DNA of 32,000 nt from Candidatus Paracaedimonas acanthamoebae. Its GTDB lineage: Bacteria > Pseudomonadota > Alphaproteobacteria > Caedimonadales > Caedimonadaceae. Below, piece by piece: positions 1 through 22,686 of this stretch. Numbering within the stretch: position 1 is the first letter of the stretch; every line of letters starts with the position of its first letter. Position numbers and translations under genes: made by a program. The DNA is taken from assembly GCA_000743035.1 (NCBI GenBank), contig CP008940.1, forward strand, positions 1 through 32,000, given 5' to 3'. Below the pieces are notes generated by a model. It made no database searches and had not been told where the DNA came from. It was given only the letters and a program-made list of their open reading frames with translations.

Positions 1-460
1 AAACCAATTTTGCATAAGTAAGTCCTTTTTGGGGGTTGGATGAATGATAATGAGCAACAGCCTTAAACCAGCTGTGATGCTGAGCTCTAAGGGAGACAAG
101 AAACTGGGCAGCAATTGAGGTATTTTTTAAAGGATTTAACAGCTCTTGAGCCGAATTTACTTTATCTTTGTGCCAGAAATAATTGATCTGGTGACACCCC
201 ACATCAAAGTTCTCAATCCCCAAAGCCAGAAGCTCCTTGATATAAATTGAAGCGACTTTCTCCGTCTTAAAGTAATAACTTTTGCCTTGAATGTGAATTG
301 ACCATGGCCACGGGGCTCTATGAGGACCAAAGCCACTTTCAACTTTAGCAATTTGCAGGAGAAGCTTTTTTGGCACATTGATTTGATCTGAGAGAAGATC
401 AATGGCTTTTAAACAAAGATTGGCTTTGGCTGGGGCCATAAAAGTCAAGAAAACAATCAT
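1..460 (-). CDS. VirB1-like lytic transglycosylase (SLT domain); 3' end cut by the window edge
   Basis: Not in the supplied track because it has no stop inside the window. My translation from ATG 460..458 gives MIVFLTFMAPAKANLCLKAIDLLSDQINVPKKLLLQIAKVESGFGPHRAPWPWSIHIQGKSYYF...DVGCHQINYFWHKD...AVAHYHSSNPQKG. It has the catalytic E-S motif and the PWPW and GCxQIN blocks typical of SLT-family muramidases. It starts 20 nt after the virB11 stop, on the same strand. Confidence 0.7.
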   Translation of the reverse strand, partial: MIVFLTFMAPAKANLCLKAIDLLSDQINVPKKLLLQIAKVESGFGPHRAPWPWSIHIQGKSYYFKTEKVASIYIKELLALGIENFDVGCHQINYFWHKDKVNSAQELLNPLKNTSIAAQFLVSLRAQHHSWFKAVAHYHSSNPQKGLTYAKLV

Positions 461-480
461 GGTTATAACAAAGGGATATC

Positions 481-1419
481 TCATGGCTGAATCCTGATAA
501 GCTCTTGTGTTTTCGGGAACATCATCTCCCCTACATAGCGCTGTCCTTTGTCGCTGCGATGTAGCTGAATGACCAAATCAACAGCTTCATACAGGAACTC
601 TTTGACACCCTTTGGCTCATGCCCTGAGAACGCAATGTTTTGCGGAATGGCCCACGAAAGAGCTGATTCACAGCTATTGGCATGAAGGGTACACATAAAG
701 CCTGCATGACCTGAGTTCAAAAGCCTTAAAATGGGATAAGAATTTGCCATTGAAAGCTCTCCCATTAAGATGATGTCAGGCCGGCTTCTCATTAAATGAT
801 CAATCATTTGAGGATAGTCTAATGTTGGGTTCTTTTCATTACGGCTAACCACATAGTGCACATGGTTTTCATGAGGAATAGTGAGTTCTCTCGTATCCTC
901 AAGCACAAGAATTCGTTTATCTTGGGGAATGGATGACAAAAGACAGTTCATAAATGTCGTTTTCCCTGAACTCGTTCCGCCTGATATAAGAATATTTGCA
1001 CCTTCTTTTATGAGAGATATGATCATCTGTTCATGTTCAAGATTAAGGCCATAATCTTCAAAGGAAAGCTTTAAATAACGCCGCATCCGAATAGAGATTG
1101 AAAGCTTAGACTCAACGTTCGATCCCAGCATTGCTTCAAATCGGTGGCCGCCTGGAAGCATAACAGATAACCGGGGTTGAATAATGGGATCAAAGGCTAA
1201 CCCCCAGTGATTGGCTAAAACATGACAGAGGGTTTCCCAATACTTTAAATCAAGCTTAGGGGTTGAGATTTTCTTATACCCTTTCCCTGAAATCTCTAAA
1301 TTCAATTCTCCTGCTTTGATCACAGAGCATTCTATTAAATCTTCTTCTTGCAAATATGGATTTAATTCGGCAAGCCATGCCGTTAATGAAGGTGAGGATA
1401 ATCCCATATCACTTATCAT
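481..1419 (-). CDS. virB11: VirB11-family type IV secretion ATPase
   Basis: Walker A motif GGTSSGKTTF, then LVLEDTRE, GELS and a GHAGxxxTLHA His-box, all typical of VirB11/TrbB hexameric ATPases. The ORF is open up to 1470. I prefer ATG 1419..1417 (MISDMG) because it overlaps the stop of the upstream 808-aa gene (AATGATAAGTGA). Confidence 0.9.
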   Translation of the reverse strand: MISDMGLSSPSLTAWLAELNPYLQEEDLIECSVIKAGELNLEISGKGYKKISTPKLDLKYWETLCHVLANHWGLAFDPIIQPRLSVMLPGGHRFEAMLGSNVESKLSISIRMRRYLKLSFEDYGLNLEHEQMIISLIKEGANILISGGTSSGKTTFMNCLLSSIPQDKRILVLEDTRELTIPHENHVHYVVSRNEKNPTLDYPQMIDHLMRSRPDIILMGELSMANSYPILRLLNSGHAGFMCTLHANSCESALSWAIPQNIAFSGHEPKGVKEFLYEAVDLVIQLHRSDKGQRYVGEMMFPKTQELIRIQP

Positions 1420-3835
1420 TTTTTCGCCATGGTCCATATACTTTCCTGCCATCTGAGTAATGAGTGACATCTCTTATGCCAGGATAATGATAAGTCATTT
1501 TCTTAATCCTATCTCCCATCTTTACTTGGTATGGAATGTTCGCATATTCATGAGTTACTTGAACAACTGTACTTTGGGGCTTGTTTTGGATAAGCGTATT
1601 TGAATTTTTGATAACTGTCGTTTGAGAGGGGCTCGATGGTTTAGTAAGTTGTTGTATAATAGGTTTGGATAACCCAGCCACCTTTTCATAAATAGTTCCA
1701 TCAGGGCGTGTCCATAGTTGAACTTTATCTTGCGGACTAATTAAAGTGTTTCCATCCATGGAAGGTGATTGAGTAAGAGACGGTCTATTGATTTCATCCG
1801 ATAAGATGTAAGGTAACCACCTATTTTCATCATTTTCTGTAAATTCTTTAATAATTAATAATGTTTTACTGCCTTTAATAGATATTTGATATCGAGGCTT
1901 CGATTTAAGCTCTTGGTCCAAATGCTCATATCCAATAATTGATAAGAAGTGGGGGAGAGGTTCATTAGAGCGTCTGCAAGATTTATCAATAAATCTGTTC
2001 TTGCCATTCCATTGATAATAAGCCCTCATCAGAGGATAAGAACGGCCTGATTCAAAATCATGTTCATACTGACCTTCACACCCCTCTTTAGTGAAGATTA
2101 AATTTGTAAGATCTTGGGGTTCACACTGCTGTGAAATAATCTTTGTCTTATCTTTATAATTAATCTGACGCCTAGCCATAGGAATGACGGTTGAACCATT
2201 AATGACTGGTTTGCATCCAGCTTTAACAAACTGATGAGCGATTGTTTCTTCTGTCTCATGACAGGGAGTGACTTCATGGGTAATTCCATTTTCAATAAAT
2301 ATATCTCTTTTTTGAATAATAGATTTATTCTGCTCATAGAGATGTTTGAGTGAGCACCCTTGCTCTGTAAGAATAATCGATAAGGGGTGATGATTTGTCG
2401 GGTGGCATGCATTAACAAGCTTTCTAGCATTGCTCCTATCATAATAGACTGTTTCTGCTTGAGGATACGCAAGGCGTAATTGAAGATCTATGTCATGAGG
2501 ACATAAGCCTCTCTCTTCTATAAAGGGGTGAGGTTGTGACTCATCTTTAATACAGTGTTCATCAAGATATATTTTATTGTTAGCATCATCGAGCCAATAC
2601 CGTTTAAAAGTTGTATAAGCAACACCAGCTTGCTGATCAATAATGTCAGAACAACAACCGTAATCTTTTTTAATATCAAAAATGAGATGAGAATCAGCAC
2701 AGTGTGTTTCATCCGTAACGACTCCATTTGTTCTAGCAATGGAGCGAGTTTGTATAATGACCTTACCTCTTTCTAGATCTATCCGTGGGGGACACCCTTC
2801 TTTTGTGACTTCCACCTCAATAAGAGGCATTTTAAACTGATCTCCCCCTAAAGCATCTTTTTGGTTAATTTTTAAGGGGTTAAATTCTTTATTGGGGCGC
2901 TCAACAAAATCTTTATGGGGATGATGAGATAAAGATGGGGGTGTTTCTGAAGAACTCTTAGAAGAAATGGGAAAAGTTTTCTCTCCTATCAGAGGCTTTT
3001 TTTGCATTTGTTGAATTCCTGATTCTTGCGGACTTGATGGTGTCACGGGAAATAATGTTTGAGATGATGAAGTTACAGGAGAAGCAGAAGGCTCATTTTT
3101 TTTATATGATGCATCTCTACCATTACCTCTTAAAGAATTCCCTGTCCTTCTCCCAGATAGTTGATTTTGAGGAGTTGAAGGTTGACGAATCATTGAAGCA
3201 GCACTTTTTCCCTCCTCAGATGAAGAAGAATTTCCTCGATAACTTTCTGATAAAAACGTCATTGACGCATTATCATGAGAACTCCTGTCTTCAACAGACG
3301 TGTCTAAATCAGAGAGATCTCTTGATAAGTGATGTTTTTTAATCTTACCTTCGATGTCCTCTAAACGCCGTTCATTTGATAATGGATTCTCTGCTTTGAG
3401 CTCATCACTTCCTTGCTCGTCTTCCCCTTTTTCAAGGCGCTCAATGGCATCTGAGAGGAAAGCCTTATCTCCATAAAGAGAAATCTTTAAGCCTTTAGGA
3501 AGGATTTCCTTTTTACTTTTGAATGTTGAAATTAAAGGCTCTTTAAATGAGGCTCTTTTTTTATCTTTGCTTTTAACACCTGTCCAAACGACTTGAACAA
3601 TCTTATCGTCTCTTTTTGAGGGGATGGAGATCGCCCGAGCCTGCCCAATTAAAGTTATTTCCTTTGGGTTATCCTTTTTCTTTTGACCTTCAAATAGGTG
3701 AGCTTTTATGAAGGATTCACTTTCCTGAAGAGGGGTGTCCTCCATTAAAATAGCCCCCATTTCTTCAGAAGGATTTGATTGCCCACAAAATGAAACACAG
3801 CAATATAGGAGAATTGATCGGTAAATAGATTTCAT
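1409..3835 (-). CDS. Large secreted hypothetical protein (808 aa): signal peptide, Ser/Pro-rich linker and a cysteine-repeat C-terminal half; embedded in the T4SS operon
   Basis: The start ATG overlaps the virB10 stop as ATGA (3832-3835), and the stop overlaps the virB11 start. The N-terminus MKSIYRSILLYCCVSFCGQ is signal-like. A low-complexity S/P/N/G region covers about aa 190-310. After it come recurring modules: TKEGCPPRIDL, ERGLCPHDIDL, TEQGCSLKHL, VKAGCKPVING, TKEGCEGQYEH. I recognise no family. Confidence 0.8.
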   Translation of the reverse strand: MKSIYRSILLYCCVSFCGQSNPSEEMGAILMEDTPLQESESFIKAHLFEGQKKKDNPKEITLIGQARAISIPSKRDDKIVQVVWTGVKSKDKKRASFKEPLISTFKSKKEILPKGLKISLYGDKAFLSDAIERLEKGEDEQGSDELKAENPLSNERRLEDIEGKIKKHHLSRDLSDLDTSVEDRSSHDNASMTFLSESYRGNSSSSEEGKSAASMIRQPSTPQNQLSGRRTGNSLRGNGRDASYKKNEPSASPVTSSSQTLFPVTPSSPQESGIQQMQKKPLIGEKTFPISSKSSSETPPSLSHHPHKDFVERPNKEFNPLKINQKDALGGDQFKMPLIEVEVTKEGCPPRIDLERGKVIIQTRSIARTNGVVTDETHCADSHLIFDIKKDYGCCSDIIDQQAGVAYTTFKRYWLDDANNKIYLDEHCIKDESQPHPFIEERGLCPHDIDLQLRLAYPQAETVYYDRSNARKLVNACHPTNHHPLSIILTEQGCSLKHLYEQNKSIIQKRDIFIENGITHEVTPCHETEETIAHQFVKAGCKPVINGSTVIPMARRQINYKDKTKIISQQCEPQDLTNLIFTKEGCEGQYEHDFESGRSYPLMRAYYQWNGKNRFIDKSCRRSNEPLPHFLSIIGYEHLDQELKSKPRYQISIKGSKTLLIIKEFTENDENRWLPYILSDEINRPSLTQSPSMDGNTLISPQDKVQLWTRPDGTIYEKVAGLSKPIIQQLTKPSSPSQTTVIKNSNTLIQNKPQSTVVQVTHEYANIPYQVKMGDRIKKMTYHYPGIRDVTHYSDGRKVYGPWRKNDK

Positions 3836-4869
3836 GGTTGTTTTATCTCCATATCTTTATTTTTTTCATGAGCTATTTTTGAACTTTCTTGGGCAAGAGA
3901 TTCTTTTGAATGCCTTAAGACTATGTCTGAGGACGGGATAATTTGAATGTGACTTCCTGGTGGAATGGTTAAGATAGGAGCTAAATTAATATTTTGTTCA
4001 ATGACTTGTGAAGTTGCCTCACTTAAATTATGCGAAAACTCATCAGAAGCTCCTGTCAAAAGCTGAGAAAGAGTGCTTTTAGATCTTGCCTCGCTTGCAT
4101 AAGAGCCTGCTTGCGCAAGAGAAGCTGTCGCTGAGATTAAAAAAGCTGCTCCATAGCGCTCCCACACCCGTTGATCTAATTCACCAATAAGACCTGTTCT
4201 TCCCGTTTGATCAGACGCTATAGACTCTTTAAGAGCGACACTGACTCCATCAGGACGAATCAACCGTTTACATTGCACAGGAAGACGTGTTTGACCGATT
4301 TCACCTAAAGGCTCATAATGGCAAATGATTCGGCTATAAGCTGGAATGAGAACAAACTTTCCATTCGGACTTAAGACATCTCGCTCCACAATGGCAATCA
4401 TTCGCCCTCCCACTTGAGAATTGACAGAATCTTCTAAAATCGCTGGAATCCGCATATCTGCTGTTAAAATTCGGGATCGGTCCACAGGAAGTGTAGAGCG
4501 AGATTCTTCAAAGCTTGCATCTTCCCATTGCTGATAATCTGGATCTTGAAGACGGGGCTTTTGTTCTTCTTCCTTTTTAGGGGGCAGGACCTTTAAGGTC
4601 TTGTTTGCTTGATATTGCCTTAATCCTCGTAATTGGCGAGCTTTATCTTCCCGTATGAGAGGTTTTGGATCTGGGAAATGAACAACCACAGGTTCAGGCT
4701 CTGGTTCCGGCTCTACAACAACAGGCTTAGGCTCTTCAGGTTTTTTAAAGACATGAAAGTCTGGGGCAAGCTTTTGCCGTGGCTCGAGGGTAGGCTTTTT
4801 TGAAGCTTCATCCTCTAAACACCCACTTAAAAGAGCTGTTGTAAGCAAAAGAAAACAAACTTTCTTCAT
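3832..4869 (-). CDS. virB10: VirB10/TrbI-family T4SS core protein
   Basis: Pro-rich stretch PEEPKPVVVEPEPEPEPVVVHFPDPKP, followed by a TrbI-like C-terminal domain (RILTADMRIPAILEDSVNSQVGG...IRPDGVSVAL...GLIGELDQRVWERYG...PPGSHIQII). The preferred start ATG 4869..4867 forms an ATGA overlap with the virB9 stop. The ORF is open up to 4902. Confidence 0.9.
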   Translation of the reverse strand: MKKVCFLLLTTALLSGCLEDEASKKPTLEPRQKLAPDFHVFKKPEEPKPVVVEPEPEPEPVVVHFPDPKPLIREDKARQLRGLRQYQANKTLKVLPPKKEEEQKPRLQDPDYQQWEDASFEESRSTLPVDRSRILTADMRIPAILEDSVNSQVGGRMIAIVERDVLSPNGKFVLIPAYSRIICHYEPLGEIGQTRLPVQCKRLIRPDGVSVALKESIASDQTGRTGLIGELDQRVWERYGAAFLISATASLAQAGSYASEARSKSTLSQLLTGASDEFSHNLSEATSQVIEQNINLAPILTIPPGSHIQIIPSSDIVLRHSKESLAQESSKIAHEKNKDMEIKQP

Positions 4870-5822
4870 TCCGCTGCCTCTTGAGGGGTCGGAAAGACGC
4901 ATACCACTCTCACGCCATTACGAAGCGTAAAAGAACCTGAATGCTGAGCAACAATCTTTGTCCCTTCTCGATTTACATTAATCGGCGTATCTACGCCATC
5001 TATCACGGCGTAAATGGCAGGAAGACCCTTCTTTTTAATTTCTTCTCCATAATCAAACCAGGTGCGGATGCCATCACTGTAAACACGGTAAGGCGCGATT
5101 TCTTTATCGCCTGCCATGGTGAAGTTAAAGTTAAGCTGAGAAGGATCAAAAGTGACTTCTTCAAGATAATCGTCTTTTGAGGTCTCGCCCTTCCCTTTTA
5201 TTTTAGTGAGAGAAGAAGAAAAATTTGAAGGCTTAGCGACTCGTATATAAACTGCCAGATCAGGCACATGATGTGTGTTATACCCTTCTGATCTTAGATA
5301 AAATGAGTAAACTTTGCCACTCGCGCCAATGACAACAAGGTTGCTGTCAAGACCAGTAAACTCTTGAGGTTGAAGGGTGAGAATATTCGCTCTCGGGTTC
5401 TCAACCTTAAAAGAAGAAGGATCACCAAGGGTGAACTTCTCAACCCTCTCCCAGCTGGGCAGGATAATACACGTTGTCATCATCTCTCGGCATCGGAGCT
5501 TAATAATTTCGCTACCTGTATAAGTGACATTATAAACTCCAGCTCCTTCTTTCGCATGATCCCAAGCATGCTGAATGGCCCCTAAAGGCAATGATTCTTT
5601 ACGCTCCAAATCAGGATAATGGCCTTTCACTTGGTGTTCTACATCTGGATGCTCAGTGAGGACATGGGATGAGCTAGATGGCATTAAATCTTCTGGGGCT
5701 GGTGTTGGCGCCATGACTGGCGGCTGATGTATAGGTTGGGAACTTGCTCTTCCTAAAGGAGAGGCAATGAGAAGCGGCGTCAATATCATAAGAGTGATAG
5801 ATTTTGAGTTATTTTTGAGCAT
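4866..5822 (-). CDS. virB9: VirB9/CagX-family T4SS outer-membrane core protein
   Basis: Signal peptide MLKNNSKSITLMILTPLLIASPLGRA. VirB9-like blocks are present: IKLRCREMMTTCIILPSWERVEKFTLGD, VVIGASGKVYSFYLRSE, YSDGIRTWFDYG. It sits between virB8 and virB10. The ORF is open up to 5894, and the chosen ATG 5822 overlaps the virB8 3' end. Confidence 0.9.
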   Translation of the reverse strand: MLKNNSKSITLMILTPLLIASPLGRASSQPIHQPPVMAPTPAPEDLMPSSSSHVLTEHPDVEHQVKGHYPDLERKESLPLGAIQHAWDHAKEGAGVYNVTYTGSEIIKLRCREMMTTCIILPSWERVEKFTLGDPSSFKVENPRANILTLQPQEFTGLDSNLVVIGASGKVYSFYLRSEGYNTHHVPDLAVYIRVAKPSNFSSSLTKIKGKGETSKDDYLEEVTFDPSQLNFNFTMAGDKEIAPYRVYSDGIRTWFDYGEEIKKKGLPAIYAVIDGVDTPINVNREGTKIVAQHSGSFTLRNGVRVVCVFPTPQEAAE

Positions 5823-6477
5823 CAAGACTTCCTTTCTGAGCAAGCGTATAGTGGGTGACGGTAAAGCCAATAGGATTGATATATTGATCCTCAATTGAGA
5901 CTGCCTGAGGTTCTAAGGAGACTGTTAATGTTGAAACCCAATGTCCTTGACCAATTACTTGTCCTTTATGACGATCACGTGATATCCACTCCACTTGATA
6001 AATATTAGGCGCACTGGGTGCTAAAGAAGTGCTTGAGAGGATTTGGATTTCTCGCGTCACTAGTTCTTCTTGTCTTTTCTTAAAAGGAGAGTCTTGATTT
6101 TCAGGCTTCATAAGGGACATGAATTCGTCATTTAATTGAGCACCTGTCATCAGACTTAATTGCTTCCACCTGAGCTCTTCTGTTTGCAGATCAATGGTCT
6201 CCCGTAAAGTAACATATTGACGAGAAAGCGTTTCCATCAGAAGGATTGTTGCTTTTTCATTGCGTGTAATAGGCTCAATGCGAACCACTTGTTCTCCTTT
6301 ATCCTTAAGAGTCACCAGCATAGGCTGCACCTCTTTTAAAGGAAGAAGCACAATGATAAGGCAAACAAGCGCAATGACGGCTAATCCCAAAACAACAGCA
6401 CATATTGTTGAAAGACGAGCCGTTGTTTGAGCCGCTTTATAAGATTCAAAGCTTTGAAGAGAAGGTTCTAAATCCAT
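5809..6477 (-). CDS. virB8: VirB8-family T4SS inner-membrane protein
   Basis: A single TM segment (LSTICAVVLGLAVIALVCLIIVLLP) is followed by a periplasmic domain ending in the INPIGFTVTHY (NPxG) motif. It sits in the canonical position. The ORF is open up to 6519, and I prefer ATG 6477 (MDLEPS), which overlaps the virB7-like stop by 10 nt. Confidence 0.85.
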   Translation of the reverse strand: MDLEPSLQSFESYKAAQTTARLSTICAVVLGLAVIALVCLIIVLLPLKEVQPMLVTLKDKGEQVVRIEPITRNEKATILLMETLSRQYVTLRETIDLQTEELRWKQLSLMTGAQLNDEFMSLMKPENQDSPFKKRQEELVTREIQILSSTSLAPSAPNIYQVEWISRDRHKGQVIGQGHWVSTLTVSLEPQAVSIEDQYINPIGFTVTHYTLAQKGSLDAQK

Positions 6478-6629
6478 TGTCCATTCCGATAAATAATTTG
6501 CTTTTTGCAAGGAGAGCATTCGCTTTGAGGCAGTTTATCGGTACCACTGCCTGTATAAGGATCACTTGTTTGAGAACACCCACTTGCCAGAAGCGTCAGT
6601 ACGAGAAGAGGAAGATATAAATATTTCAT
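6468..6629 (-). CDS. virB7: VirB7-like small lipoprotein (53 aa)
   Basis: Below the ORF-track size cutoff. My translation is MKYLYLPLLVLTLLASGCSQTSDPYTGSGTDKLPQSECSPCKKQIIYRNGQWI. It has the lipobox LASGC and an AGGA Shine-Dalgarno about 7 nt upstream. It starts 11 nt after the virB6 stop, in the canonical slot between virB6 and virB8. Confidence 0.65.
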   Translation of the reverse strand: MKYLYLPLLVLTLLASGCSQTSDPYTGSGTDKLPQSECSPCKKQIIYRNGQWI

Positions 6630-6640
6630 GGTTTTTTCCT

Positions 6641-7699
6641 TTATTCTGAACCAATAATATTGTTAAGAGCAGGGTTCTCCCATGATGAACCACGGGATGA
6701 CAGATGATTCTTGATTTTAGGCCCTGCCCAACCCTTGACAGCGCCCCATGCTTTTTGAGCCCCTTTTTGGCCGTAATGCTTTGCACCTCCCCCTATCATC
6801 CCCATGGTTGCCGAAGAGACGCCTGCCACAAATCCTGCAGCACCAGGTCCATCAGAAGCTCCTGCAATGTTCGCAATGGTGGGGACTTTAAGCTGAAGGT
6901 AGATTGAAAGGCAGGCAATGATAAAGCATGTCCAATAAGCATCACTAAAGGCAAATGAGCCTGCATCTTCCCTTAAAATACCATTTCCATCCAAAGGTAT
7001 GAGATGAAGTGATTCTTTAAGCACATATAAGCTCAGGCCCATGGCAATGACAGAAATCAAAATTGTAAAAACCCCATGCAAGACCATCTTAAGTCCTGAT
7101 GTGGATATACTTCGGGTTGATGAAAAGCCTGCAAAGATAATGAGTAAGGGAGACAAAGCTGTGACAGCCATCAGCTTGAACATATAGTCTAAACAATAAC
7201 AAAGCATAATAATGTAAAGAAAGAGAAAGGGTATTCTCATAATGATGGAAGCAAGTGTATTAAATCCTGGAATAATCCCGGTATCTTGCATCATTAAACT
7301 CATCGACTCAAAAACTTGATTGAGCGTTCCGTATTGAAACTTGAGCACGGAAAAAAGAGTGGCTTTAGACCCTGAATAATTAACCTTTATAACAGAAATC
7401 ATGGTCTCAACTAGTTTTGCAACCGTTTCATTGATGGGCAAGTAGAACCAATTTGAGAAAGTGCTAGCTGTTAGAAGAATTGAAATAGATATGCTGATTA
7501 AAAATGGTTTTAGAAAATCAGAGAAGTGGAATTCTCCTTTAATGGCTCCTTTCCAAATCAGTTGCCAGACAAACCAGCACCCAAAAGCGGCCATAAAAAG
7601 AGAAAGACACCCTACACTTAAGGCATTAAAAATTTTAACGCCATAGCTTTCCATCCTGAGCTCAAGCATTTTAATAATTTCGATAGGTTTATCCATCAT
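6641..7699 (-). CDS. virB6: VirB6/TrbL-family polytopic T4SS membrane protein
   Basis: There are at least 6 long hydrophobic segments, a Gly-rich C-terminal tail, and a position between the virB5-like and virB7-like genes. The start follows the upstream stop immediately (TAAATGATG). Confidence 0.8.
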   Translation of the reverse strand: MMDKPIEIIKMLELRMESYGVKIFNALSVGCLSLFMAAFGCWFVWQLIWKGAIKGEFHFSDFLKPFLISISISILLTASTFSNWFYLPINETVAKLVETMISVIKVNYSGSKATLFSVLKFQYGTLNQVFESMSLMMQDTGIIPGFNTLASIIMRIPFLFLYIIMLCYCLDYMFKLMAVTALSPLLIIFAGFSSTRSISTSGLKMVLHGVFTILISVIAMGLSLYVLKESLHLIPLDGNGILREDAGSFAFSDAYWTCFIIACLSIYLQLKVPTIANIAGASDGPGAAGFVAGVSSATMGMIGGGAKHYGQKGAQKAWGAVKGWAGPKIKNHLSSRGSSWENPALNNIIGSE

Positions 7700-8455
7700 T
7701 TATTTCCCTGCTTTTAATTGAGGTGAAGACATCTTTTTAAAAACTGTAGGTTGGGCTTGTGCCATATAAGTTGCCATTAACTCTAATTGTTGAGATTGAA
7801 GGAGAATAAGTTTGTCCAACTGATGAGCAATATGCTCAAGGAGTCTTGTTTGCATATTCGTTTGATATTGAAGGGTTGGGTTCTGTTCAGCTTGCACCTT
7901 TATCTGGGTGAGCTGATAGTGATCGTCCCTCAGTGTTTTCTTTTGCTGAGTTGCGATAGCTAAGGAATCCACTGTTGAAACTTGAACAGCCTCAAGTTTT
8001 TGATCTCTAAGTTGGGATAATTGTGTTGGCGTTGTTATGGACCTATCTGAAAAAAACTTCTGCTGAAAATAGTTTTTAGCATAAATATAGTTTGAAAAAT
8101 CTTTCTTTCCCCCATGTTGGACATTCATATGGTTGAGTTGCATTAAGGAATCCCCTCCTTGCCCTGTGAGGCTGCTTAAAAGAAAACTAAAATCACCGCT
8201 TAAATTTCCCACTTTCATAACTTTTTGAAGAAAACCTGGATCAAGTCTTGACCCCAGAACACTATTCATTTCCATCATCTCACCTGATAATGTTTTAAGC
8301 TCCTGTAATGATTCCCCCGCAGTACTTAAAACGTTGCTGAGAGTCTTAAATGTTTTAAAATCAAAAGTCGCTAAAGCCCCAGAATGAGATTCTTTACTAT
8401 GACCTATAAAAAGGCTGCTTAAAACTAAGCAGCATCTAAATATTTTTCGACCCAT
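7700..8455 (-). CDS. virB5: VirB5/TraC-like minor pilus or adhesin subunit candidate
   Basis: Signal peptide MGRKIFRCCLVLSSLFIGHS. The body is helical and Gln/Leu-rich, about 250 aa long, and sits between virB4 and virB6. A GGAG lies 6 nt upstream of ATG 8455. The assignment rests on position and architecture, not on a recognised motif. Confidence 0.5.
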   Translation of the reverse strand: MGRKIFRCCLVLSSLFIGHSKESHSGALATFDFKTFKTLSNVLSTAGESLQELKTLSGEMMEMNSVLGSRLDPGFLQKVMKVGNLSGDFSFLLSSLTGQGGDSLMQLNHMNVQHGGKKDFSNYIYAKNYFQQKFFSDRSITTPTQLSQLRDQKLEAVQVSTVDSLAIATQQKKTLRDDHYQLTQIKVQAEQNPTLQYQTNMQTRLLEHIAHQLDKLILLQSQQLELMATYMAQAQPTVFKKMSSPQLKAGK

Positions 8456-10878
8456 TGATGGCTCCATTGGTGTTGTAAGTGGTTAACAAGTTTGACAGCC
8501 TCTGACCCTGAGCGATAAAGCTTAAGGTGAGGCCCTAAAGATGAAAGGTCACAATCTAGAATGACCGATTCATTAAAGCGCTTAACCAGCACTGAGTGTT
8601 TGAGAGATCTCGAGATCTTGCTCTCGCCTTTAATATAAGACCATTCAGACTCTGTAAGATCAAAATCAGCATAATCTTCTCTTTTAGCGGATGGATTAGG
8701 GAATAAAAATCTTGTTGGGCATTGATCTAAGACAACGGATGAGATGCCCGATTCTTTAAGGTCTTTAATGTTCTGGAAGCAGACATTAATGCTTCCTCTT
8801 AATTTGCGATGTTCTTTAAAAAAGACTCCGACAGAGGATTTAAAATAATGATCCTGAATAAGAGGCGCTGTTTCATCAATAAAAATAAAATGAGGGAGTG
8901 CTTCTTCGCGAATCACCCGCCTTATCCGATGAATAATGTATTGAGTTACAGTGTTGGCAACTTGAGGATTGGCTTGCACATCCGTCATCTCAAAGGCAAC
9001 AAGGCGATGCGAAGTAAGGTCCAAAGCATCGTAAGCCTCAATGTTACCGTTAAGTTCTTGGGATCCGTTAAACCAACCTCCTAAAGCGCCGCCCTCAGTC
9101 CAAGGAAGCAACCTTCTTTTAATTAAACTTTGAGCCGGAAAAAGATCCTCTATAAGATATTTTAAGAGCCTTTGTTCTTTAGGGACCTTGAAAAGAATTT
9201 GGATGGCTCTTTGAGCCACCTCCAGGCTCTCTTCGTCTTGAACACTTGCCATCATACATAAAAGCTGAGGAAGGAAGGATCTTTCTTGAGGGGTGTCCTC
9301 ACAATAAAAGGGATTAAGCAAAGAGGTGTTTTGATGGCTAAAATCTATATAGTTTCCCCCCATGCTTTGAGTAAAAATCCGGGTGCCATTAAACCGATCA
9401 AAGATATAAGCTCTTAAATTAGAGTGCCTTAATGCGCCCCCTATGAGATGCTGAAAGAAAGTTGTCTTGCCTGATCCTGCAGGCGCAATCACAATTGAAT
9501 TCGCCAAAGCTTCTTTTTCTTCTGAAGAATGGATTTGAAGAGCATAAGAAGAGCCTGATGAGGTTTTAAAAAGGCGTATAGGCCCCTCTCCCCAATCACA
9601 CCTTTGAAACCCTTGAGGTTCATGATCAAAAGAAAGAAGATGACTGATATTATGCGATAAAGGATGGGTTTGTCTTAAAAAAGATTCACTGCCTGGGAAC
9701 TGAGATCGCCAGGCATATTCAAGGGACGCTGTTTCTTGAATCGGGAGGGCCCCATAAGATTTAAAGATGCGTCTTGCTTCTTCACATAAAGTTGTTAATT
9801 CGTCATATGAATCTGAAATCAATACGATGGAACATTGATACCCATAAAGGGAGGCTTGATCCGAGGTAATCAGCTCTATGGCGGCATCAAACTCTTCCAT
9901 CACTTGATCATTGGGAAACAGATCTCCCAAAAGACTTCGTTGCTTCTTTTGATCCATGAGATAAAGAAGAGCTTTTGCTTTAGAAGTTCCTTTTAAAAGT
10001 TGGCAGATGATAAATTGACCTTTAAGAGAACTTAAATCTTTCATCAGCTGTGGGCTTGAGTTTTTGTCCCATTTATTAAGAGTTAAGATGGCTCCAAATC
10101 TTTTACCAAGTTCATCTTTCCACTCTATATTCCCCTTTTGAGTGTCAAACCCAACCTGACATGAGACCATTTGATCTGAGAGATGAGAGTTTAAAGGTTT
10201 TAAAGGCGCTGATCTTCCATGAATAAGATGTGACCAAAAACTTAAAAGAGGGCTTAAACTCCCATCATTTTTGATCATGTGAGGCTCTAAATCATGAAGG
10301 GCTTCAAGGGTAAGAGAAGTAGCTTCTCTTAAGATATGTTCATGAAAAGATGTTGTTTCAGTTTTTCTGCCATAAATCTTATCTCTTAGTTTGTCTAAAG
10401 AAGAAGGTAATTGAGGAGCCACACATAAGGTAATGTAATGATGATTGAGGAACGTCCGATCAAATTGTTCCATCCATTGATCATGGACTGATTGCAGCAC
10501 CTCAGTGTCATATGTTCCTTCTAGCGTGCGGGTGATCTCTTCTCGCGTTGTTAAGACTTTTATAATCACATTCATTTGAGCCAACTCGTCAAGCCACTTT
10601 TTTCTTTTTTCAAATAGATGATGAAGTTCATCAGAGGTTAAATTATCCGTATTTGTTCCCCTGATTTTAATAAGGCGAGAGAGCATTCCATTCTTGCTTT
10701 GAAGGGTTATCTTATCCTCCCACACTGAATCAAAAGGCAGCGTGTCTTTAAGATAAGTTTCCTCGAAAGATGGCGTGAGCTTTCTTTGTAAACGATTTGA
10801 TAAAGCAACGCCTGCTCCCAAAGCTAAGGCAGAGCTCCCAGCAGCTAAGGAGGCAATACTGACCCACTCATGCGCCAT
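8425..10878 (-). CDS. virB4: VirB4/TrbE-family T4SS ATPase
   Basis: 817 aa with Walker A APAGSGKTTF, a Walker B-like FIFIDETAP, and a length and position typical of VirB4. Confidence 0.95.
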   Translation of the reverse strand: MAHEWVSIASLAAGSSALALGAGVALSNRLQRKLTPSFEETYLKDTLPFDSVWEDKITLQSKNGMLSRLIKIRGTNTDNLTSDELHHLFEKRKKWLDELAQMNVIIKVLTTREEITRTLEGTYDTEVLQSVHDQWMEQFDRTFLNHHYITLCVAPQLPSSLDKLRDKIYGRKTETTSFHEHILREATSLTLEALHDLEPHMIKNDGSLSPLLSFWSHLIHGRSAPLKPLNSHLSDQMVSCQVGFDTQKGNIEWKDELGKRFGAILTLNKWDKNSSPQLMKDLSSLKGQFIICQLLKGTSKAKALLYLMDQKKQRSLLGDLFPNDQVMEEFDAAIELITSDQASLYGYQCSIVLISDSYDELTTLCEEARRIFKSYGALPIQETASLEYAWRSQFPGSESFLRQTHPLSHNISHLLSFDHEPQGFQRCDWGEGPIRLFKTSSGSSYALQIHSSEEKEALANSIVIAPAGSGKTTFFQHLIGGALRHSNLRAYIFDRFNGTRIFTQSMGGNYIDFSHQNTSLLNPFYCEDTPQERSFLPQLLCMMASVQDEESLEVAQRAIQILFKVPKEQRLLKYLIEDLFPAQSLIKRRLLPWTEGGALGGWFNGSQELNGNIEAYDALDLTSHRLVAFEMTDVQANPQVANTVTQYIIHRIRRVIREEALPHFIFIDETAPLIQDHYFKSSVGVFFKEHRKLRGSINVCFQNIKDLKESGISSVVLDQCPTRFLFPNPSAKREDYADFDLTESEWSYIKGESKISRSLKHSVLVKRFNESVILDCDLSSLGPHLKLYRSGSEAVKLVNHLQHQWSHQWVEKYLDAA

Positions 10879-11137
10879 AGAGATTGCCTCCTTGGGGTAG
10901 CTGCCGTTTTGTTCGCTTGTATTTAAAGCGAGCTCGCATCACTTCTACAAAATAAGGATCATAAGAGCTTAGAGCAATAACAGCTCCATGAGAGAGGATA
11001 TAAGCCCCAATGGCCACCATCTCATTTGTTAAGAACCATGTCATTCCTGCTATAATCATGGGTAAAGGAATGGCTGATTGTGACGCGCACAGCCTTTGAG
11101 GAGGTTCAGAGACAGAGGAAAGCACATAAGCTCTCAT
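10868..11137 (-). CDS. virB3: VirB3-family small membrane protein
   Basis: 89 aa with two hydrophobic segments (IPLPMIIAGMTWF, VAIGAYILSHGAVIAL), followed by DPYFVEVM and a basic tail. ATGA overlap with the virB2 stop and an 11-nt overlap with the virB4 start. Confidence 0.8.
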   Translation of the reverse strand: MRAYVLSSVSEPPQRLCASQSAIPLPMIIAGMTWFLTNEMVAIGAYILSHGAVIALSSYDPYFVEVMRARFKYKRTKRQLPQGGNLYGA

Positions 11138-11451
11138 CAGCTTCCCCCCATAAATTGAACAAGGATATTAATACCGATAAGCGCACACCCAACACCACAA
11201 ATGGAGCCAATCCATTTCCAGTTTCCTCCTTGATTCGTTAAGAACTTAAAAAGAGCTGCCACCAGCGCAACACCTACACACGCCTTACCAATTAAGATAA
11301 GGCCGTTCCTTAATTCTCCTAATTTCCCAGTAAAGACTTGAGAAAAGGCAAAGGCCGGATGGCTTTCAATCAAAAGATACACGCTCAAAGAGAGAGCTAA
11401 TGTATGCTCTGAAATTGAGTCCTTAGTTTTTTTAATAAAAGAGGTGATCAT
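11137..11451 (-). CDS. virB2: VirB2/TrbC-type pilin precursor
   Basis: 104 aa. A long leader ends in AFAFS, followed by two hydrophobic helices (ILIGKACVGVALVAALF, IGSICGVGCALIGINILV). It lies directly upstream of virB3. Confidence 0.75.
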   Translation of the reverse strand: MITSFIKKTKDSISEHTLALSLSVYLLIESHPAFAFSQVFTGKLGELRNGLILIGKACVGVALVAALFKFLTNQGGNWKWIGSICGVGCALIGINILVQFMGGS

Positions 11452-12236: not shown

Positions 12237-12506
12237 TTATTCCTTCAAATTTTTCTTCTTCTCTAATAATTTTATTCGCCTTTCTAAATACCAGATGGCC
12301 TTCTTCAAATCCTTGACCTCATCATGTTTACGCCCAGCTCTGGAGATGTATTTCAAGGCACATGCTAAGTGATGATTTAAGTTCCAGTCCTCAGTCACAC
12401 TTATAGGTTCTATGGTACGTCCCTCTACATAATGCTTAGGAGTGTTAATATCGGAGTCTTGTTCATCATTTGAGTGAGGCTGGATGAGGGATAGTTTTTG
12501 ATTCAT
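12237..12506 (-). CDS. DUF3310-like (phage-associated) small protein
   Basis: PKHYVEGRTIEPISVTEDWNLNHHLACALKYISRAGRKHDEVKDLKKAIWYLERRI matches my recollection of the DUF3310 pattern (HY...IE..dv...w.l.f.lgNalKYi.Rag.K....DL.KA.wYL). ATGA overlap with the upstream rep-like gene. Confidence 0.55.
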   Translation of the reverse strand: MNQKLSLIQPHSNDEQDSDINTPKHYVEGRTIEPISVTEDWNLNHHLACALKYISRAGRKHDEVKDLKKAIWYLERRIKLLEKKKNLKE

Positions 12507-13957
12507 GCGCTTACTCCATCTGATTTGAGATCATTGTATTTTAAATGCAGCTCCCTTGAAAAAGACCCAGCAGCTTTTAAACTTCCAGGATAAGTTAAGG
12601 GGGAGCTTCGAAGAACACTATGTTCCTCTGCATTTGATGCTGAAGGAACATCAAAACTCTTGTTGGATAAGGAAGTAGAAGGAGAGCTATTGGGGGACCC
12701 TCCTTCTACCAACTCTGACAAGGGGAGGATGTCAGAGTTTTGGGAAACTTCAATTTTAAGGTGATCAACTGAATAGCCTAAAGCTTCTTTTAAAGCTGAT
12801 AAGATCTGAGCTTTTAAGTTCTTGCTGACCCAGTCTCTTGCAAACAAAGTAGGAGAGTGAAGACAAACCTCTTCTTGGGTAAGAGAGACAATATCCATGT
12901 CTAAAAGCCATTGACGAATAAGGGAGACTTCAAGCTTATCAGTTAGAAGTAAACACACTTTCTTCCACAAAGGATGATGTGCAGAAGAGAGAATTTGTTG
13001 GCGTAATAATTCTTCTTTTTCTGCCTTATTTTCTTCACTCTTTGCTTCTGGAAGAAAGGCAATGCGATCGCCTAAGGTAAACTGGCCTGATTCAATTTTG
13101 TGAAAGGCCTCTTCCTTAATGGCCCAAGTCAGCCACGGTTTTTGAAAATGCTTACCACCCCCCTCCCCCATTAAGAACTTACTTGAGGCAATCTTCCTGC
13201 AATAGGATCTCCAAGTGACAAGAGAGGAGCCAAAAAGGCTTTGAAAGGCTTGATGAAGATTTATGACCAAAGAAGGGGTTAACTGGCTGATCTCAAGGAA
13301 GCCAATCTCTTCCATCCAAATTTCTTTCATCTCACTTGCAATGTTTTCTTTTTCTTCTTCTGCTGATCCACATGAGGAGGAGGATGGAGAAGAAGAAAGA
13401 GTAATCTCTGTGTGTAATCTCTTATCTATATTGTTCGCTAATTTTTTAACATTCGAATGTCCATTTTTGACGTTCGAATGTTGTGAACTTAACATTCGGG
13501 AGTTATGCGGGTTTTGAGGTAATGTGAAATCACTTAAAGGATAGCCAAGTGCAAATAAGCTTTCCTGTAGTTTAACGAGGTTCAGCCTATATTTGGTCGT
13601 TTTGTCCCATTTATTATCATCAAGATATGCCTCTTCGATAACCTCAAGGTCGACAAGGTTTTTTAAAACGGTGCGCATTGTTTGACGAGAAACTCCAAGC
13701 ATTGTTTCATCAGCTAGATCTTGAGCTGTTTTAATGATCCATCCATGTCTAAGATCAACATTACACTCTGGATTGCGGTTATGTTCTTCTTGTAAAAATT
13801 TATCAAAGTCATAAACACGTTTTGTCCAATAAATAAGCTGATGCAATACCACAGCAGCTTTGTAATCTTTAGTAAGGGCAACTAAGTCCTCTCTAATGAC
13901 CGACTTCATAATAGGACGAAGCTTAAGAAGTGAAGAAGCTGTATGAGGATAATGCAT
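12503..13957 (-). CDS. Replication-initiator candidate: N-terminal winged-helix-like region plus a C-terminal DnaA_N-like domain
   Basis: The C-terminal LWKKVCLLLTDKLEVSLIRQWLLDMDIVSLTQEEVCLHSPTLFARDWVSKNLKAQILSALKEALG follows the DnaA domain-I pattern (W..cl..L......f..Wi..l........l.l..PN.F..dWv...y...i...l). It is a paralog of the 19189-20457 gene. Confidence 0.6.
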   Translation of the reverse strand: MHYPHTASSLLKLRPIMKSVIREDLVALTKDYKAAVVLHQLIYWTKRVYDFDKFLQEEHNRNPECNVDLRHGWIIKTAQDLADETMLGVSRQTMRTVLKNLVDLEVIEEAYLDDNKWDKTTKYRLNLVKLQESLFALGYPLSDFTLPQNPHNSRMLSSQHSNVKNGHSNVKKLANNIDKRLHTEITLSSSPSSSSCGSAEEEKENIASEMKEIWMEEIGFLEISQLTPSLVINLHQAFQSLFGSSLVTWRSYCRKIASSKFLMGEGGGKHFQKPWLTWAIKEEAFHKIESGQFTLGDRIAFLPEAKSEENKAEKEELLRQQILSSAHHPLWKKVCLLLTDKLEVSLIRQWLLDMDIVSLTQEEVCLHSPTLFARDWVSKNLKAQILSALKEALGYSVDHLKIEVSQNSDILPLSELVEGGSPNSSPSTSLSNKSFDVPSASNAEEHSVLRSSPLTYPGSLKAAGSFSRELHLKYNDLKSDGVSA

Positions 13958-14127
13958 CTCTCTAATCCTTCTTGATATTCATGTGAAGAAGCCCAACAGG
14001 ATAAGAGGCCAAATTAAGGTATGCGCCTGATGCATAGGGGCCATAGGAATAATTCAGTGGACAAATATGTTGAATTGGTGCATACATAGGCATGTAAACC
14101 TTTCTTCATTGGTTGGTTTTACAAGAG

Positions 14128-14281
14128 GCCCGCAATGACGTCGAAATCAATGTGCGGGCTTCTCTAACTTATTTTCTTCATACAGCTCCGTCGCTACTTC
14201 CCTTAAAAAGGTTCCAGTAACCCTAAGATTACTGGGAAACAAGTTCACAGGGAGGCTTCTCGAGAAAACTTATTCTCGAGA
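14128..14281. promoter_or_regulatory. Structured leader or intergenic region upstream of the rep-like gene (three hairpins)
   Basis: Three hairpins: GCCCGCA/TGCGGGC (14128-14159), CCAGTAA/TTACTGG (14214-14235), and TCTCGAGAA/TTCTCGAGA (14258-14281; perfect 9-bp stem, 6-nt loop). The region is GC-richer than the AT-rich DNA that begins at about 14290. Confidence 0.35.
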
Positions 14282-14595
14282 CTTAACACGAGAGCCGTGC
14301 TAAATTTAATTTTCAAAGCTGAAATATAATTATTAAATTGAAAGTAGCGTAATAGATATAAAAGTTTATTATTTAAATTTTTATATAATTTTGTTCTACC
14401 ATTGCATTGATAATGCATATCCCACCCCTAATATTATTTTCCCAAATACTATTATTTCTTCCTAATCAAATATAAATATGCTTTTCTTACATATGTTTCT
14501 CTGTTGTATGTTAAAAAGATACACACAACATGTTTTGTGGTCAAGTATATTTTTAGAGTGTTTTGCGTAAAACGATATATATGGAATTAATTTAA

Positions 14596-15486
14596 ATGAA
14601 AATCAACGACTTAAATAAATTAATTTATTTTAAGGAAGCTGCTCAGTTACTTAGTTATACAAAAGCATCGAAAAAATTGGATACAACTCCGTCTAGCGTT
14701 CAGAGAGCTGTTAAAGGGCTAGAAGAGAACCTTGAGCACAAACTCTTCGTTCGTAAATCGAAAGGGCTTGCTTTAACATCTGAAGGAAAATTATACCTTG
14801 ATAGAGTATTAAAAGCTCTTAAAGAACTTCAGATTGCGGAAAAAGAACTAGAGTCTAAAAAACAAGATCCCTTAAATAAATTAAAAATTTTAACAACATT
14901 AGGCTTAGCTGCTGACTGGGTATATAAAGTTATACCTTTAATTCAAAATGATTACCCATCATTAAAAATTGAAATGTGCACCTCTAACTTAGAGGTATCA
15001 TTAGAAACTGAAGAGTTTGATATTTATCTAGGACCCAAGATTGAAACAGCGCTTTCTTATAAAAATAAATTCATAACTAATGTAGATTTTAAACTCTATG
15101 CAAGTAAGCTATACTTAGAAAGATATGGCTTTCCTAAGGACAAGAAAGAATTAAAAAAGCATAAGTTAATAAATTTTTCAGGTTCAAGCCAAACTTACTT
15201 TTCAAATACAAATGAGATATTTTCAGATTTAGGTGATTATGAAAATTATGATTTAACGGTCGACTTCTATTTGGTAGAGCGCAATCTTGTTTTGAGCAAT
15301 TTAGGTATTGCTTCAATTGCCAAAGATATAGTAGAGGCTACATATCCAGACTTAGTCGATATATTTCCATCAGAGAAACCACTGTCTGTTCCCATATATA
15401 TTTACTACTTAACAAAAAACTTAGATGAATCTAGAATTAAAGAAATATATAACAACCTTATTAAGGTCTCACCTTACCAACGTTAA
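14596..15486 (+). CDS. LysR-family transcriptional regulator
   Basis: The N-terminal HTH LIYFKEAAQLLSYTKASKKLDTTPSSVQRAVKGLEENLEHKLFVRKSKGLALTSEGKLYLD is the classic LysR pattern. The length of about 296 aa includes a substrate-binding-type C-terminal part. Confidence 0.85.
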   Translation: MKINDLNKLIYFKEAAQLLSYTKASKKLDTTPSSVQRAVKGLEENLEHKLFVRKSKGLALTSEGKLYLDRVLKALKELQIAEKELESKKQDPLNKLKILTTLGLAADWVYKVIPLIQNDYPSLKIEMCTSNLEVSLETEEFDIYLGPKIETALSYKNKFITNVDFKLYASKLYLERYGFPKDKKELKKHKLINFSGSSQTYFSNTNEIFSDLGDYENYDLTVDFYLVERNLVLSNLGIASIAKDIVEATYPDLVDIFPSEKPLSVPIYIYYLTKNLDESRIKEIYNNLIKVSPYQR

Positions 15487-15680
15487 AAATATTTTTGATT
15501 GTTGAGGTGATATTGTTTCGAAAACTACTTTTTGCATTTTCATCTCCTATGCGTTAATTTAGAGTATACATATCATATCTTTTAAATTAAGGCAAAATTA
15601 ATTAAAATTTGAGAATTTTTTGAATAAAATTCATTTTTCTATAAAAATTTATATGTTTAATACTAAAAATTATATATTTT

Positions 15681-16769: not shown

Positions 16770-16804
16770 ACATTCTTTCCGAAATTATTTTTTTAAATTA
16801 GTGT

Positions 16805-17668: not shown

Positions 17669-18240
17669 ATACGTTATGTTTCCCCTAATAAATTAATGTA
17701 ATAAAATTTAACATAGTTTTTATGTGAAATGCATTTATTCAATAAATAACTTATAAAACTCTTATGCTTAAAAAAAAAATCAGAAAATATATAAATAAAG
17801 TTATACTTATTTTATAAGATCTATTTCCCTATTGATACGAGGTAAAATTGAAACTTAAGGTGCATCAAATATTAGATGATATTTTTTTGTTAAAATAGAA
17901 ATTGGTGGGGGTGACTGAGAGTCTTTAAGCCTTCCCTGTTTAATCTTCTCTTAGTTCTTCTATTTGGGTATTTATTATTTCTTTTTATTTTCCCTAAAGC
18001 TCCCTCCCCTATGAGCTTACTAGAACTGTATTTCTGAAGACTATGGCAGCCCCCTGCTGCCCTTACTAAATGTAGTATATAAGAATCATTTTAAAAATAT
18101 CAAGTAAAAAGTTATTGATTTCATTATGTTTTATCTCATTTCTTGCGATAAAAGACTTATATCTCATTTTTTAAAATATTAATGTATCGTTAATCAATTA
18201 GTAAGGTATTGTTAAGATTATATTAACTGTTTGTTAACCA

Positions 18241-18843: not shown

Positions 18844-18852
18844 TGTGCGTTT

Positions 18853-19122: not shown

Positions 19123-19188
19123 TTATTATAGGCTCCTTTCCTAATTCCGATCTAAAAAATTAATTGTCATCTTCTACGTTTGTATTTC

Positions 19189-20457: not shown

Positions 20458-20500
20458 TTGTTTTCTCCTCATTTTGAGGTGCTACAAACAAGCAATATCC

Positions 20501-20528: not shown

Positions 20529-20534
20529 ATTTAT

Positions 20535-21610: not shown

Positions 21611-21626
21611 ATCTAGCTCCCATTAT

Positions 21627-22589: not shown

Positions 22590-22686
22590 AATTTGCCCTT
22601 TTCTATATCAGTTGTTTGCTTAATATATATATATCATGAAATATACTATGTAAATAGTAAACGTATTATATACGTACAGTGTATGT

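Follow-up and report, generated by a model that had tools for sequence, protein, structure and literature searches.

A cysteine-repeat protein encoded between virB10 and virB11: a probable accessory subunit and candidate surface adhesin of VirB-type conjugative secretion systems

Conjugation systems of the VirB type, those of mating-pair formation (MPF) type T, are the best-studied type IV secretion systems (T4SSs). On contig CP008940.1 of Candidatus Paracaedimonas acanthamoebae (assembly GCA_000743035.1), the operon of such a system holds an additional gene between virB10 and virB11, and the question raised by this locus is what the product of that gene contributes to the machine. Here, we analyse this gene, designated gene X (and its product X), within positions 1 to 32,000 of the contig, a stretch of 32,000 nucleotides (nt) referred to as the window throughout. 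Judged by its sequence and genomic setting, X is very probably a dedicated, lineage-specific accessory subunit of VirB/VirD4-type (MPF-T) conjugative T4SSs. More specifically, X may be a tethered adhesin of variable length at the cell surface that contacts recipients and forms or stabilises mating pairs, a reading to which we give an even chance.

An earlier, sequence-only reading of the window had described a gene of 808 codons overlapping virB10 in an ATGA, and both the list of open reading frames (ORFs) and the junction sequence bear this out, the virB10 TGA and the X start codon ATG being merged in that tetranucleotide. At its other end, X stops at a TGA at 1411–1409, and the virB11 frame offers candidate ATG codons at 1470, 1452, 1437, 1419, and 1407, so that virB11 may overlap X by as much as 62 nt or may start after a gap of 1 nt. 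The stop/start overlap with virB11 that had been claimed therefore holds for the first four of these starts and fails for that at 1407; the spacing to an AGGA, judged by eye from the sequence, is best for the ATG at 1437. A second ATGA, at 481–484, joins the virB11 stop to the start of an ORF resembling a lytic transglycosylase (SLT), so that translational coupling would extend across virB10, X, virB11, and the SLT gene. A consensus scan of positions 400–5000 found no promoter-like site on the strand of X, and, as far as these junctions can tell, virB10, X, and virB11 are transcribed together and coupled in translation. The rest of the T4SS operon beyond virB10 occupies 4866..11451 on the minus strand. 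Since the window contains a full VirB2–VirB11 set, X is an addition that replaces nothing; we considered, and rejected, the idea that it stands in for VirB7 or VirB5, both positions being filled.

Genes related to X are found well beyond this replicon. A word-indexed search returned 17 homologs, 13 at 52–92 per cent identity (including those of a Caedibacter sp. 37-49 metagenome-assembled genome [MAG] and of a Candidatus Paracaedimonas acanthamoebae plasmid) and four at 29–35 per cent; repeated with the full-length alignment, it gave the same 17 proteins and nothing further, and with the N-terminal domain alone it gave one fragment. Searching 1.84 billion cluster representatives with a profile yielded 513 X-family proteins at E <= 1e-3, 258 of them at E <= 1e-30; the family as understood here consists of these 513 clusters at 50 per cent identity, whose members are mostly 700–850 amino acids (aa) long, with some of 1000–2143 aa. 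By tblastn against PLSDB, the cysteine-repeat part was located on 13 plasmids (from Roseibium, Thalassospira, Magnetospirillum, Magnetospira, Microbulbifer, Nitrosospira, and Desulfovibrio), and a related-locus search with one family alignment returned only Caedibacter MAGs and, besides these, two contigs from MAGs into which they had been mis-binned. One type of X-bearing T4SS contig, with homolog P0014, was binned both as a ‘Francisellaceae’ MAG and as a ‘Cytophagales’ MAG (L015 and L016, from sister samples); this is probably a plasmid that was assigned arbitrarily. From the sequences retrieved, the X family is widespread and not confined to this replicon or to Rickettsiales/Holosporales.

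The position of the gene is as constant as its distribution is broad. We inspected 13 loci spanning Alpha-, Beta-, and Gammaproteobacteria and Desulfovibrio: the window; Magnetospirillum pMSR-1; Microbulbifer p_2; metagenomic contigs with P0015 and P0014; the contig of the 1935-aa P0024; Roseibium, Nitrosospira, and Desulfovibrio plasmids; and the loci of P0040, P0065, P0146, and the 2143-aa P0030. A survey of virB10–virB11 junctions had been suggested by the sequence-only reading, and in all 13 loci the X homolog occupies the slot just upstream of virB11 (in L006 and L020, an SSB gene comes between, being followed by virB11 in L006; the gene past SSB was not looked up in L020). On the other side, virB10 directly preceded X in each of the 10 loci, out of 13, where the upstream gene could be read; in L017, L019, and L020, that gene was truncated away or was not consulted. 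Between X and its neighbours virB10 and virB11, overlaps and gaps recur across loci that are only a few nucleotides long, and virD4 usually comes after virB11, the order in L003 being X–virB11–SLT–virD4. The loci bear relaxases, VirD4, ArdC, SSB, or TopA (topoisomerase), which marks the systems as conjugative, and pMSR-1 was typed as MPF_T by MOB-suite. The proposal that X is a T4SS component expressed together with the machine is thus sustained by the shared slot, the ATGA overlap, and the lack of a detected promoter; likewise, X showed no homology to a mobile or cargo gene family, and its homologs at the inspected loci occur only inside T4SS operons.

X also appears to have travelled with the core of the machine. 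Pairwise similarities of X were compared across 10 loci with those of VirB9, VirB10, and VirB11, and they rise and fall together (Pearson 0.82–0.92; core-to-core correlations, 0.90–0.95), values that indicate co-inheritance rather than a formal test, because the loci are phylogenetically non-independent. Over the same loci, the divergence of X is over twice as rapid as that of VirB9, VirB10, and VirB11 (mean normalised score 0.105 versus 0.24–0.30). When the VirB11 of the window was compared with 1634 plasmid records in PLSDB, the nine best E-values all belonged to X-bearing plasmids, which outranked Helicobacter, Campylobacter, and TrbB-type ATPases; X therefore marks a distinct sub-lineage of VirB-type systems.

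What kind of protein occupies this slot? The sequence-only reading had divided X into three parts, namely a signal-like N-terminus, a disordered linker of ~120 aa, and a C-terminal half with about a dozen cysteines. Four or five parts are distinguishable, since a folded N-terminal domain (aa 27–136) had been overlooked, and the linker, although present, is ~195 aa long. The signal-like N-terminus was correctly recognised: K2 and R6 precede a hydrophobic stretch at aa 7–18, the top hydropathy window begins at aa 3–4, and a helix is modelled at aa 3–16; canonical AXA signals can be read in the sequences of distant homologs. Reading the N-terminus as that of a lipoprotein (VSFC-G) was rejected because Cys17 is not conserved among homologs. 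In the full-length AlphaFold2 model, which was built from an 18-sequence alignment, the N-terminal domain (~aa 27–136) is predicted to be a beta-sheet with one helix (predicted local distance difference test [pLDDT] about 75–85). The linker (~aa 140–334; 19 per cent Ser, 9 per cent Lys, and 8 per cent Pro) has a pLDDT of 23–37, residues 335–730 are modelled as all-beta with a pLDDT of 85–93, and a low-confidence stretch at aa 732–753 is followed by beta-hairpins. A second model, of aa 335–808 with 30 sequences, reached a pLDDT of 87.3 and a predicted template modelling score (pTM) of 0.46; high local pLDDT together with low pTM would be expected if modules that are each well defined were strung into an elongated rod.

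The C-terminal half contains the most distinctive feature of the protein. Mature X has 13 cysteines, all between aa 348 and 620, spaced 31/16/(33/17)/32/17/31/16/30/15/34, that is, in an alternation of ~31 and ~16 residues. The recurring (T/V)(K/E)(E/A)GC-type modules, which had been described as lying 40–60 residues apart, are borne out (the motifs TKEGC-344, TEQGC-490, VKAGC-537, and TKEGC-582 are found), and their description could be sharpened to six ~47-aa repeats with two cysteines each: cutting X at its x-x-x-G-C motifs gives modules of 45–51 aa, and profile–profile comparison (hhalign) with the family alignment reveals them to be homologous and in register (modules 4 and 6, probability 98.2 per cent, E 2.7e-14; modules 1 and 4, 96.7 per cent, E 3.2e-10; modules 2 and 3, 96.6 per cent, E 6.5e-10; modules 3 and 6, 93.1 per cent, E 3.1e-07), module 5 being the most divergent. 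A BLAST self-comparison, unlike the profile comparison, did not detect repeats in X. Eleven of the cysteines are invariant in the alignment with distant homologs, which places the pattern well past chance; given these cysteines and the signal peptide, X almost certainly leaves the cytoplasm, to go by its sequence.

Among 156 family domains, the cysteine columns from C445 through C620 are filled in 99 per cent, and those of C348, C379, C395, and C428 in 85, 94, 92, and 69 per cent, respectively. A cysteine in the C394 column is anti-correlated with one at C428 (p = 1.7e-10), as would be expected if each were the alternative partner of C395, and the pattern as a whole fits a predicted pairing with one intramodule disulfide per module, the pairs expected being 348–379, 395–428, 445–477, 494–525, 541–571, and 586–620. 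In 83 per cent of the domains, a further cysteine stands in the column of X residue 696 (~nt 1748–1750), with its partner ~36 aa later; this pair is absent from the X of the window and from its close Holosporales-type relatives. At one of the 13 loci (the marine contig L017), a Redoxin/AhpC-TSA (thioredoxin-fold) gene lies shortly 3′ of virB11 (4114–4596); it recalls the TrbB disulfide isomerase of the F plasmid, which accompanies cysteine-rich Tra proteins.

Within the family, some parts of X are kept and others vary strongly. The N-terminal domain profile matches 139 of 162 family representatives, the remainder being mostly fragments, and the 31/17 alternation of cysteines is preserved through the whole family. 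The number of modules is not fixed: there are six in the X of the window, ~15–17 in P0029 and P0035, and ~29–33 in P0024 and P0030, and among family representatives protein length follows the count of C-x(26–40)-C pairs (r = 0.87). Giant members reach 1935–2143 aa (e.g. P0024, whose gene lies at L006 8001–13808), and the P0030 gene (L020 2081–4734) contains five tandem blocks of 585–591 nt, each of four modules, at 68–75 per cent identity, from which it follows that the array grows by tandem duplication. The program TRF reported no DNA-level tandem repeats in X or its giant homologs, the period exceeding 500 nt; a DNA repeat search did detect them.

Mean identities over 14 close homologs are 68 per cent in the N-terminal domain, 35 per cent in the linker (which is 99–262 aa long), 71 per cent in the cysteine modules, 52 per cent in the beta region after the array, and 33 per cent (minimum 3 per cent) in the last 79 residues. 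Tail and core can part company altogether: the X of the window and P0004 share 80 per cent of their core and 22 per cent of their tail, the former and P0008 share 58 and 65 per cent, and P0010 and P0011 share 100 and 61 per cent. With a core–tail identity correlation of 0.33, the tails are, by sequence comparison, mosaic and exchanged independently of the core. The sole tail element kept family-wide in the alignment is a terminal Y-[SP]-D-G...W motif, and the set that defines the family in X consists of the N-terminal domain, the linker, the C-x~31-C-x~17 array, the Y-[SP]-D-G...W end, and the virB10–virB11 slot.

The statement of the sequence-only reading that X could be placed in no family stands. 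Neither X nor its homologs matched any entry of Pfam, NCBIfam, PHROGs, or PADLOC, and the N-terminal domain considered separately has no Pfam match. PDB sequences gave noise only, for both the single protein and the family profile (E 0.17–8.9), tblastn of X against 50,697 phage records gave no match, and relatives of X are named ‘hypothetical’, ‘uncharacterized’, or ‘secreted protein’ in all sources. Foldseek found no credible match for the full-length and domain models in the PDB or for the domain model in BFVD; the alignments that it reported, to beta-propellers and tail proteins, were long but spurious (TM-score <=0.2) and were rejected. Judging by Foldseek, the fold of the modelled module may be new, with the limit that F TraN is absent from the PDB, so that a fold search there is uninformative on the TraN fold. 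Derivation from core subunits was also rejected, whether as a duplicated VirB9 domain (N-terminal domain versus VirB9, CagX, PF03524: hhalign 0.3 per cent) or as a relative of VirB10 or CagY (no PF03743 match; X family versus the VirB10 of the window: hhalign 0.5 per cent). In the literature, we found no account of a comparable gene between virB10 and virB11.

These features suggest a mechanism. Sec would export X into the oxidising periplasm, where a disulfide in each ~47-aa module would turn the six modules into a rigid all-beta rod. The N-terminal domain would dock to the machine, probably at the VirB7/VirB9/VirB10 outer-membrane core, and the disordered linker would act as a flexible tether; the rod would then hold the hypervariable, cassette-swapped C-terminal end outward to touch the surface of the recipient cell. 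The role of X would be that of an adhesin that forms or stabilises mating pairs, analogous to F-type TraN, IncI PilV, and pKM101 Pep and unrelated to them in sequence. As a further, tentative step, for which we see roughly one chance in three, X may be the founding member of a class of surface fibres assembled by T4SSs: each machine would have several copies, possibly matching the 14-fold VirB10 ring, which would be tethered by their linkers round the secretion pore and would form disulfide-stapled beta rods of a new fold, with length set by module number and recipient specificity by the C-terminal cassettes.

Comparison with known systems lends this picture analogies rather than homologs. VirB5/TraC and Pep are pilus-tip or cell-surface adhesins implicated in target-cell contact, and they are small (~220 aa) and helical. 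Like X, they are Sec-exported accessory proteins of VirB-type systems (MPF-T, e.g. pKM101); unlike them, X has 808 aa, is all-beta and cysteine-rich, and shares no sequence similarity with them, and the VirB5 position of the window is filled. CagY, the VirB10 homolog of the Helicobacter pylori Cag T4SS, has repeats that have been proposed to be surface-exposed. It resembles X in its tandem repeats with conserved cysteines, in its association with VirB10, and in a repeat number that shifts by recombination or duplication, whereas X is a separate polypeptide encoded 3′ of a normal VirB10, lacks a TrbI/VirB10 domain, and has repeats predicted to be all-beta. With fibrillar adhesins, X has in common a rod of small tandem beta modules in variable copy number (~6 to ~33), growth by tandem duplication, and a variable terminus; the variable-copy tandem stalk by which such adhesins are recognised is thus found, but its module is not a known stalk domain, no recognisable adhesive domain or cell-wall or outer-membrane anchor was found, and X is tied to a T4SS operon.

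The best functional analogy is TraN of F-type systems (PF06986), an outer-membrane adhesin of mating-pair stabilisation with a fold made up of a beta-rich base and a tip. Like X, it is large, Sec-exported, cysteine-rich, and encoded within the T4SS operon, with a conserved scaffold and a variable region. The likeness to TraN and CagY that had been pointed out therefore survives as analogy and not as homology: the family profile scores a probability of 0.3 per cent against F TraN in hhalign, no PF06986 match was obtained in 17 proteins (X and 16 homologs) even at E <= 1, and there was no NCBIfam TraN match. F TraN has 22 cysteines at irregular, dense spacings of 5–46 aa, whereas members of the X family have ~12 in strict 31/17 alternation; the operon of X is of the VirB type (MPF-T: VirB4, VirB6, VirB8, VirB9, VirB10, and VirB11), whereas TraN is encoded in MPF-F operons with traU, traW, trbC, traH, and traF; and X differs from TraN in its long disordered tether and in tandem modules whose number varies. 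In a 2025 plasmid-mobility review, the variable region of TraN is stated to determine specificity for outer-membrane proteins of the recipient (PMC12282955, citing Low et al. 2022).

Several points tell against an adhesin at the cell surface. In X, we detected neither a beta-barrel nor a lipobox nor a known anchor that would explain its putative surface location, neither X nor its homologs have an adhesive domain recognisable with Pfam or NCBIfam, and a Sec-exported X would still need a route across the outer membrane. The number of cysteines in the mature protein (13) is odd, the co-occurrence of cysteines and the similarity-matrix correlation are both confounded by shared ancestry, and the family-wide conservation of the C-terminal motif means that the C-terminus, and not the N-terminal domain, could dock to the machine. 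Coupling to VirB10, a 14-copy core subunit, would suit a stoichiometric structural subunit equally well, and X could accordingly be a periplasmic part of the T4SS, added in this lineage to the stalk or the core complex of the outer membrane and working as a scaffold, spacer, or gate, comparable in role with Cag3/CagT/CagM of the Helicobacter Cag system and DotC/D/H/K of Dot/Icm. The strict slot with its translational coupling, co-inheritance with VirB9, VirB10, and VirB11, the conserved N-terminal domain and module core, the lack of an anchor or known adhesive domain, and the compatibility of the periplasm with disulfides would all agree with such a subunit. Nevertheless, we consider it unlikely, if far from negligible: an approximately five-fold range of module numbers is unexpected in a machine part of fixed geometry, a hypervariable, swapped tail and a disordered linker of ~100–260 aa are atypical for core subunits, and X evolves faster than VirB9, VirB10, and VirB11 by a factor above two. 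The argument that weighs most with us is that a rod of ~30 modules would be hard to fit into the periplasm, which favours exposure outside the cell over a periplasmic structural role.

The variable, swapped tails would also suit allele-specific recognition, and X might be a factor for surface or entry exclusion or for self-recognition, the variable end of which spots cells with a related element and blocks redundant donor–donor mating. Exclusion genes (TraS/TraT, TrbK, and Eex) are commonly situated within T4SS operons. Such a role is nonetheless improbable, since known exclusion factors are small (~60–250 aa) inner-membrane proteins or lipoproteins, whereas members of the X family have 700–2100 aa in a domain–linker–rod layout, match core machine genes in position and conservation, and show no similarity to any exclusion family in Pfam or NCBIfam. 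Still less credible, and in our estimation close to negligible, is the notion that X hitch-hikes in the operon as cargo or as a substrate for secretion, for instance an effector, toxin, or host-interaction protein of an amoeba symbiont. The window does belong to a Caedibacter/Paracaedimonas-like (Holosporales) plasmid-type replicon on which F-box/TPR genes of eukaryote-like character and a gene for a CdiA-like toxin are also found; yet family and slot are conserved on conjugative plasmids of free-living marine, soil, and sulfate-reducing bacteria, X shows no enzymatic or toxin domain in Pfam or NCBIfam, and no promoter of its own was found. Moreover, T4SS substrates are recruited by C-terminal signals via VirD4, and a Sec signal peptide is not that route.

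Coordinates of gene X, of the predicted parts of its product, and of the remaining T4SS genes in the window
Feature	Position	Strand	Basis
Gene X, whole ORF including stop	1409..3835	minus	ORF listing; 808 aa from first ATG
Signal-peptide-like N-terminus of X, ~aa 1–18	3782..3835	minus	hydropathy, model helix, signals of distant homologs
Conserved folded N-terminal domain of X, aa 26–140, proposed docking module	3416..3760	minus	pLDDT, identity, family profile
Disordered Ser/Lys/Pro/Gly-rich linker of X, aa 141–335	2831..3415	minus	pLDDT 23–37, composition
Six homologous ~47-aa two-cysteine beta modules of X, aa 340–631	1943..2818	minus	Cys spacing, hhalign, pLDDT 85–96
Cysteine-free beta-rich region of X past the array, aa 632–729	1649..1942	minus	pLDDT ~85–93, all-beta
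Hypervariable C-terminal tail of X, aa 730–808, proposed specificity end	1412..1648	minus	identity, tail swaps, terminal motif
VirB1-like lytic transglycosylase (SLT)	1..484, runs past window edge	minus	translation; family from synteny and sequence reading
virB11 ATPase	481..1437, longest ORF to 1470	minus	Pfam T2SSE, E 8e-25
virB10 (TrbI family)	3832..4902	minus	Pfam PF03743, E 5e-42
virB9	4866–5894	minus	Pfam/NCBIfam match
virB8	5809–6519	minus	Pfam/NCBIfam match
virB7-like lipoprotein, 53 aa, LLASGC lipobox	6468–6629	minus	position and sequence features
virB6	6641–7699	minus	Pfam/NCBIfam match
Gene in virB5 position	7700–8467	minus	position
virB4	8425–10878	minus	Pfam/NCBIfam match
virB3-like membrane ORF	10868–11137	minus	position, size, sequence features
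virB2-like membrane ORF	11137–11451	minus	position, size, sequence features

Beyond the T4SS operon, the replicon is compositionally mosaic. The guanine-plus-cytosine (GC) content is ~28–34 per cent at 14000–25000, where LysR, nitroreductase-like, and EamA transporter genes are found, versus ~38–45 per cent in the T4SS operon. Two paralogous proteins with a C-terminal DnaA_N domain (12503–13957 and 19189–20472, both minus) and a nearby ParA-type ATPase (21627–22589, minus) look like a plasmid backbone; a DnaA_N-domain protein is also encoded upstream of the T4SS in L003 and may be part of the same conserved module. An ORF on the minus strand at 23602–24906 encodes an unusual 434-aa fusion, in which TPR/Sel1 repeats and an F-box of the eukaryotic type are joined to an HU domain (Bac_DNA_binding) at the C-terminus; this fits the replicon of a protist endosymbiont. 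On the plus strand, an ORF of at least 2205 aa (25386–32000) runs past the end of the window and, close to where it is cut off, matches DUF637 (hemagglutinin/CdiA pretoxin); with a GC content of 45–52 per cent, versus 30–40 per cent in neighbouring DNA, and a strong positive GC skew, it probably encodes a CdiA-like contact-dependent inhibition (CDI) toxin. A DUF637/CDI-toxin gene, together with a CdiI gene, is also present on the distantly related X-bearing contig L003.

The X family is unnamed, is modelled in neither Pfam nor NCBIfam, and lacks a structural relative, and it holds a fixed slot in a T4SS sub-lineage across several phyla/classes. It is best described as a non-homologous, unnamed family that fills a T4SS accessory and probably an adhesin role, and not as something categorically new. 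In the same 2025 review, the partner-selecting adhesins listed are only TraN (F-type) and PilV (I-type), with none dedicated to MPF-T (PMC12282955), and X is a candidate for this missing adhesin of mating-pair stabilisation. The hypothesis is accessible in cultivable hosts, namely Magnetospirillum gryphiswaldense, Roseibium aggregatum, and Pseudovibrio, and a profile model for the family would end the ‘hypothetical’ calls made by T4SS annotation tools. If the repeat module is as predicted, it would represent a new disulfide-stapled fold. If X does contact recipients, it would be a determinant of the host range of plasmids among marine bacteria, soil bacteria, and the endosymbionts of protists; and if it belongs to a class of surface fibres, it would provide the first mating-pair stabilisation system for MPF-T conjugation and would account for efficient mating in liquid, in marine, aquatic, and intracellular settings.

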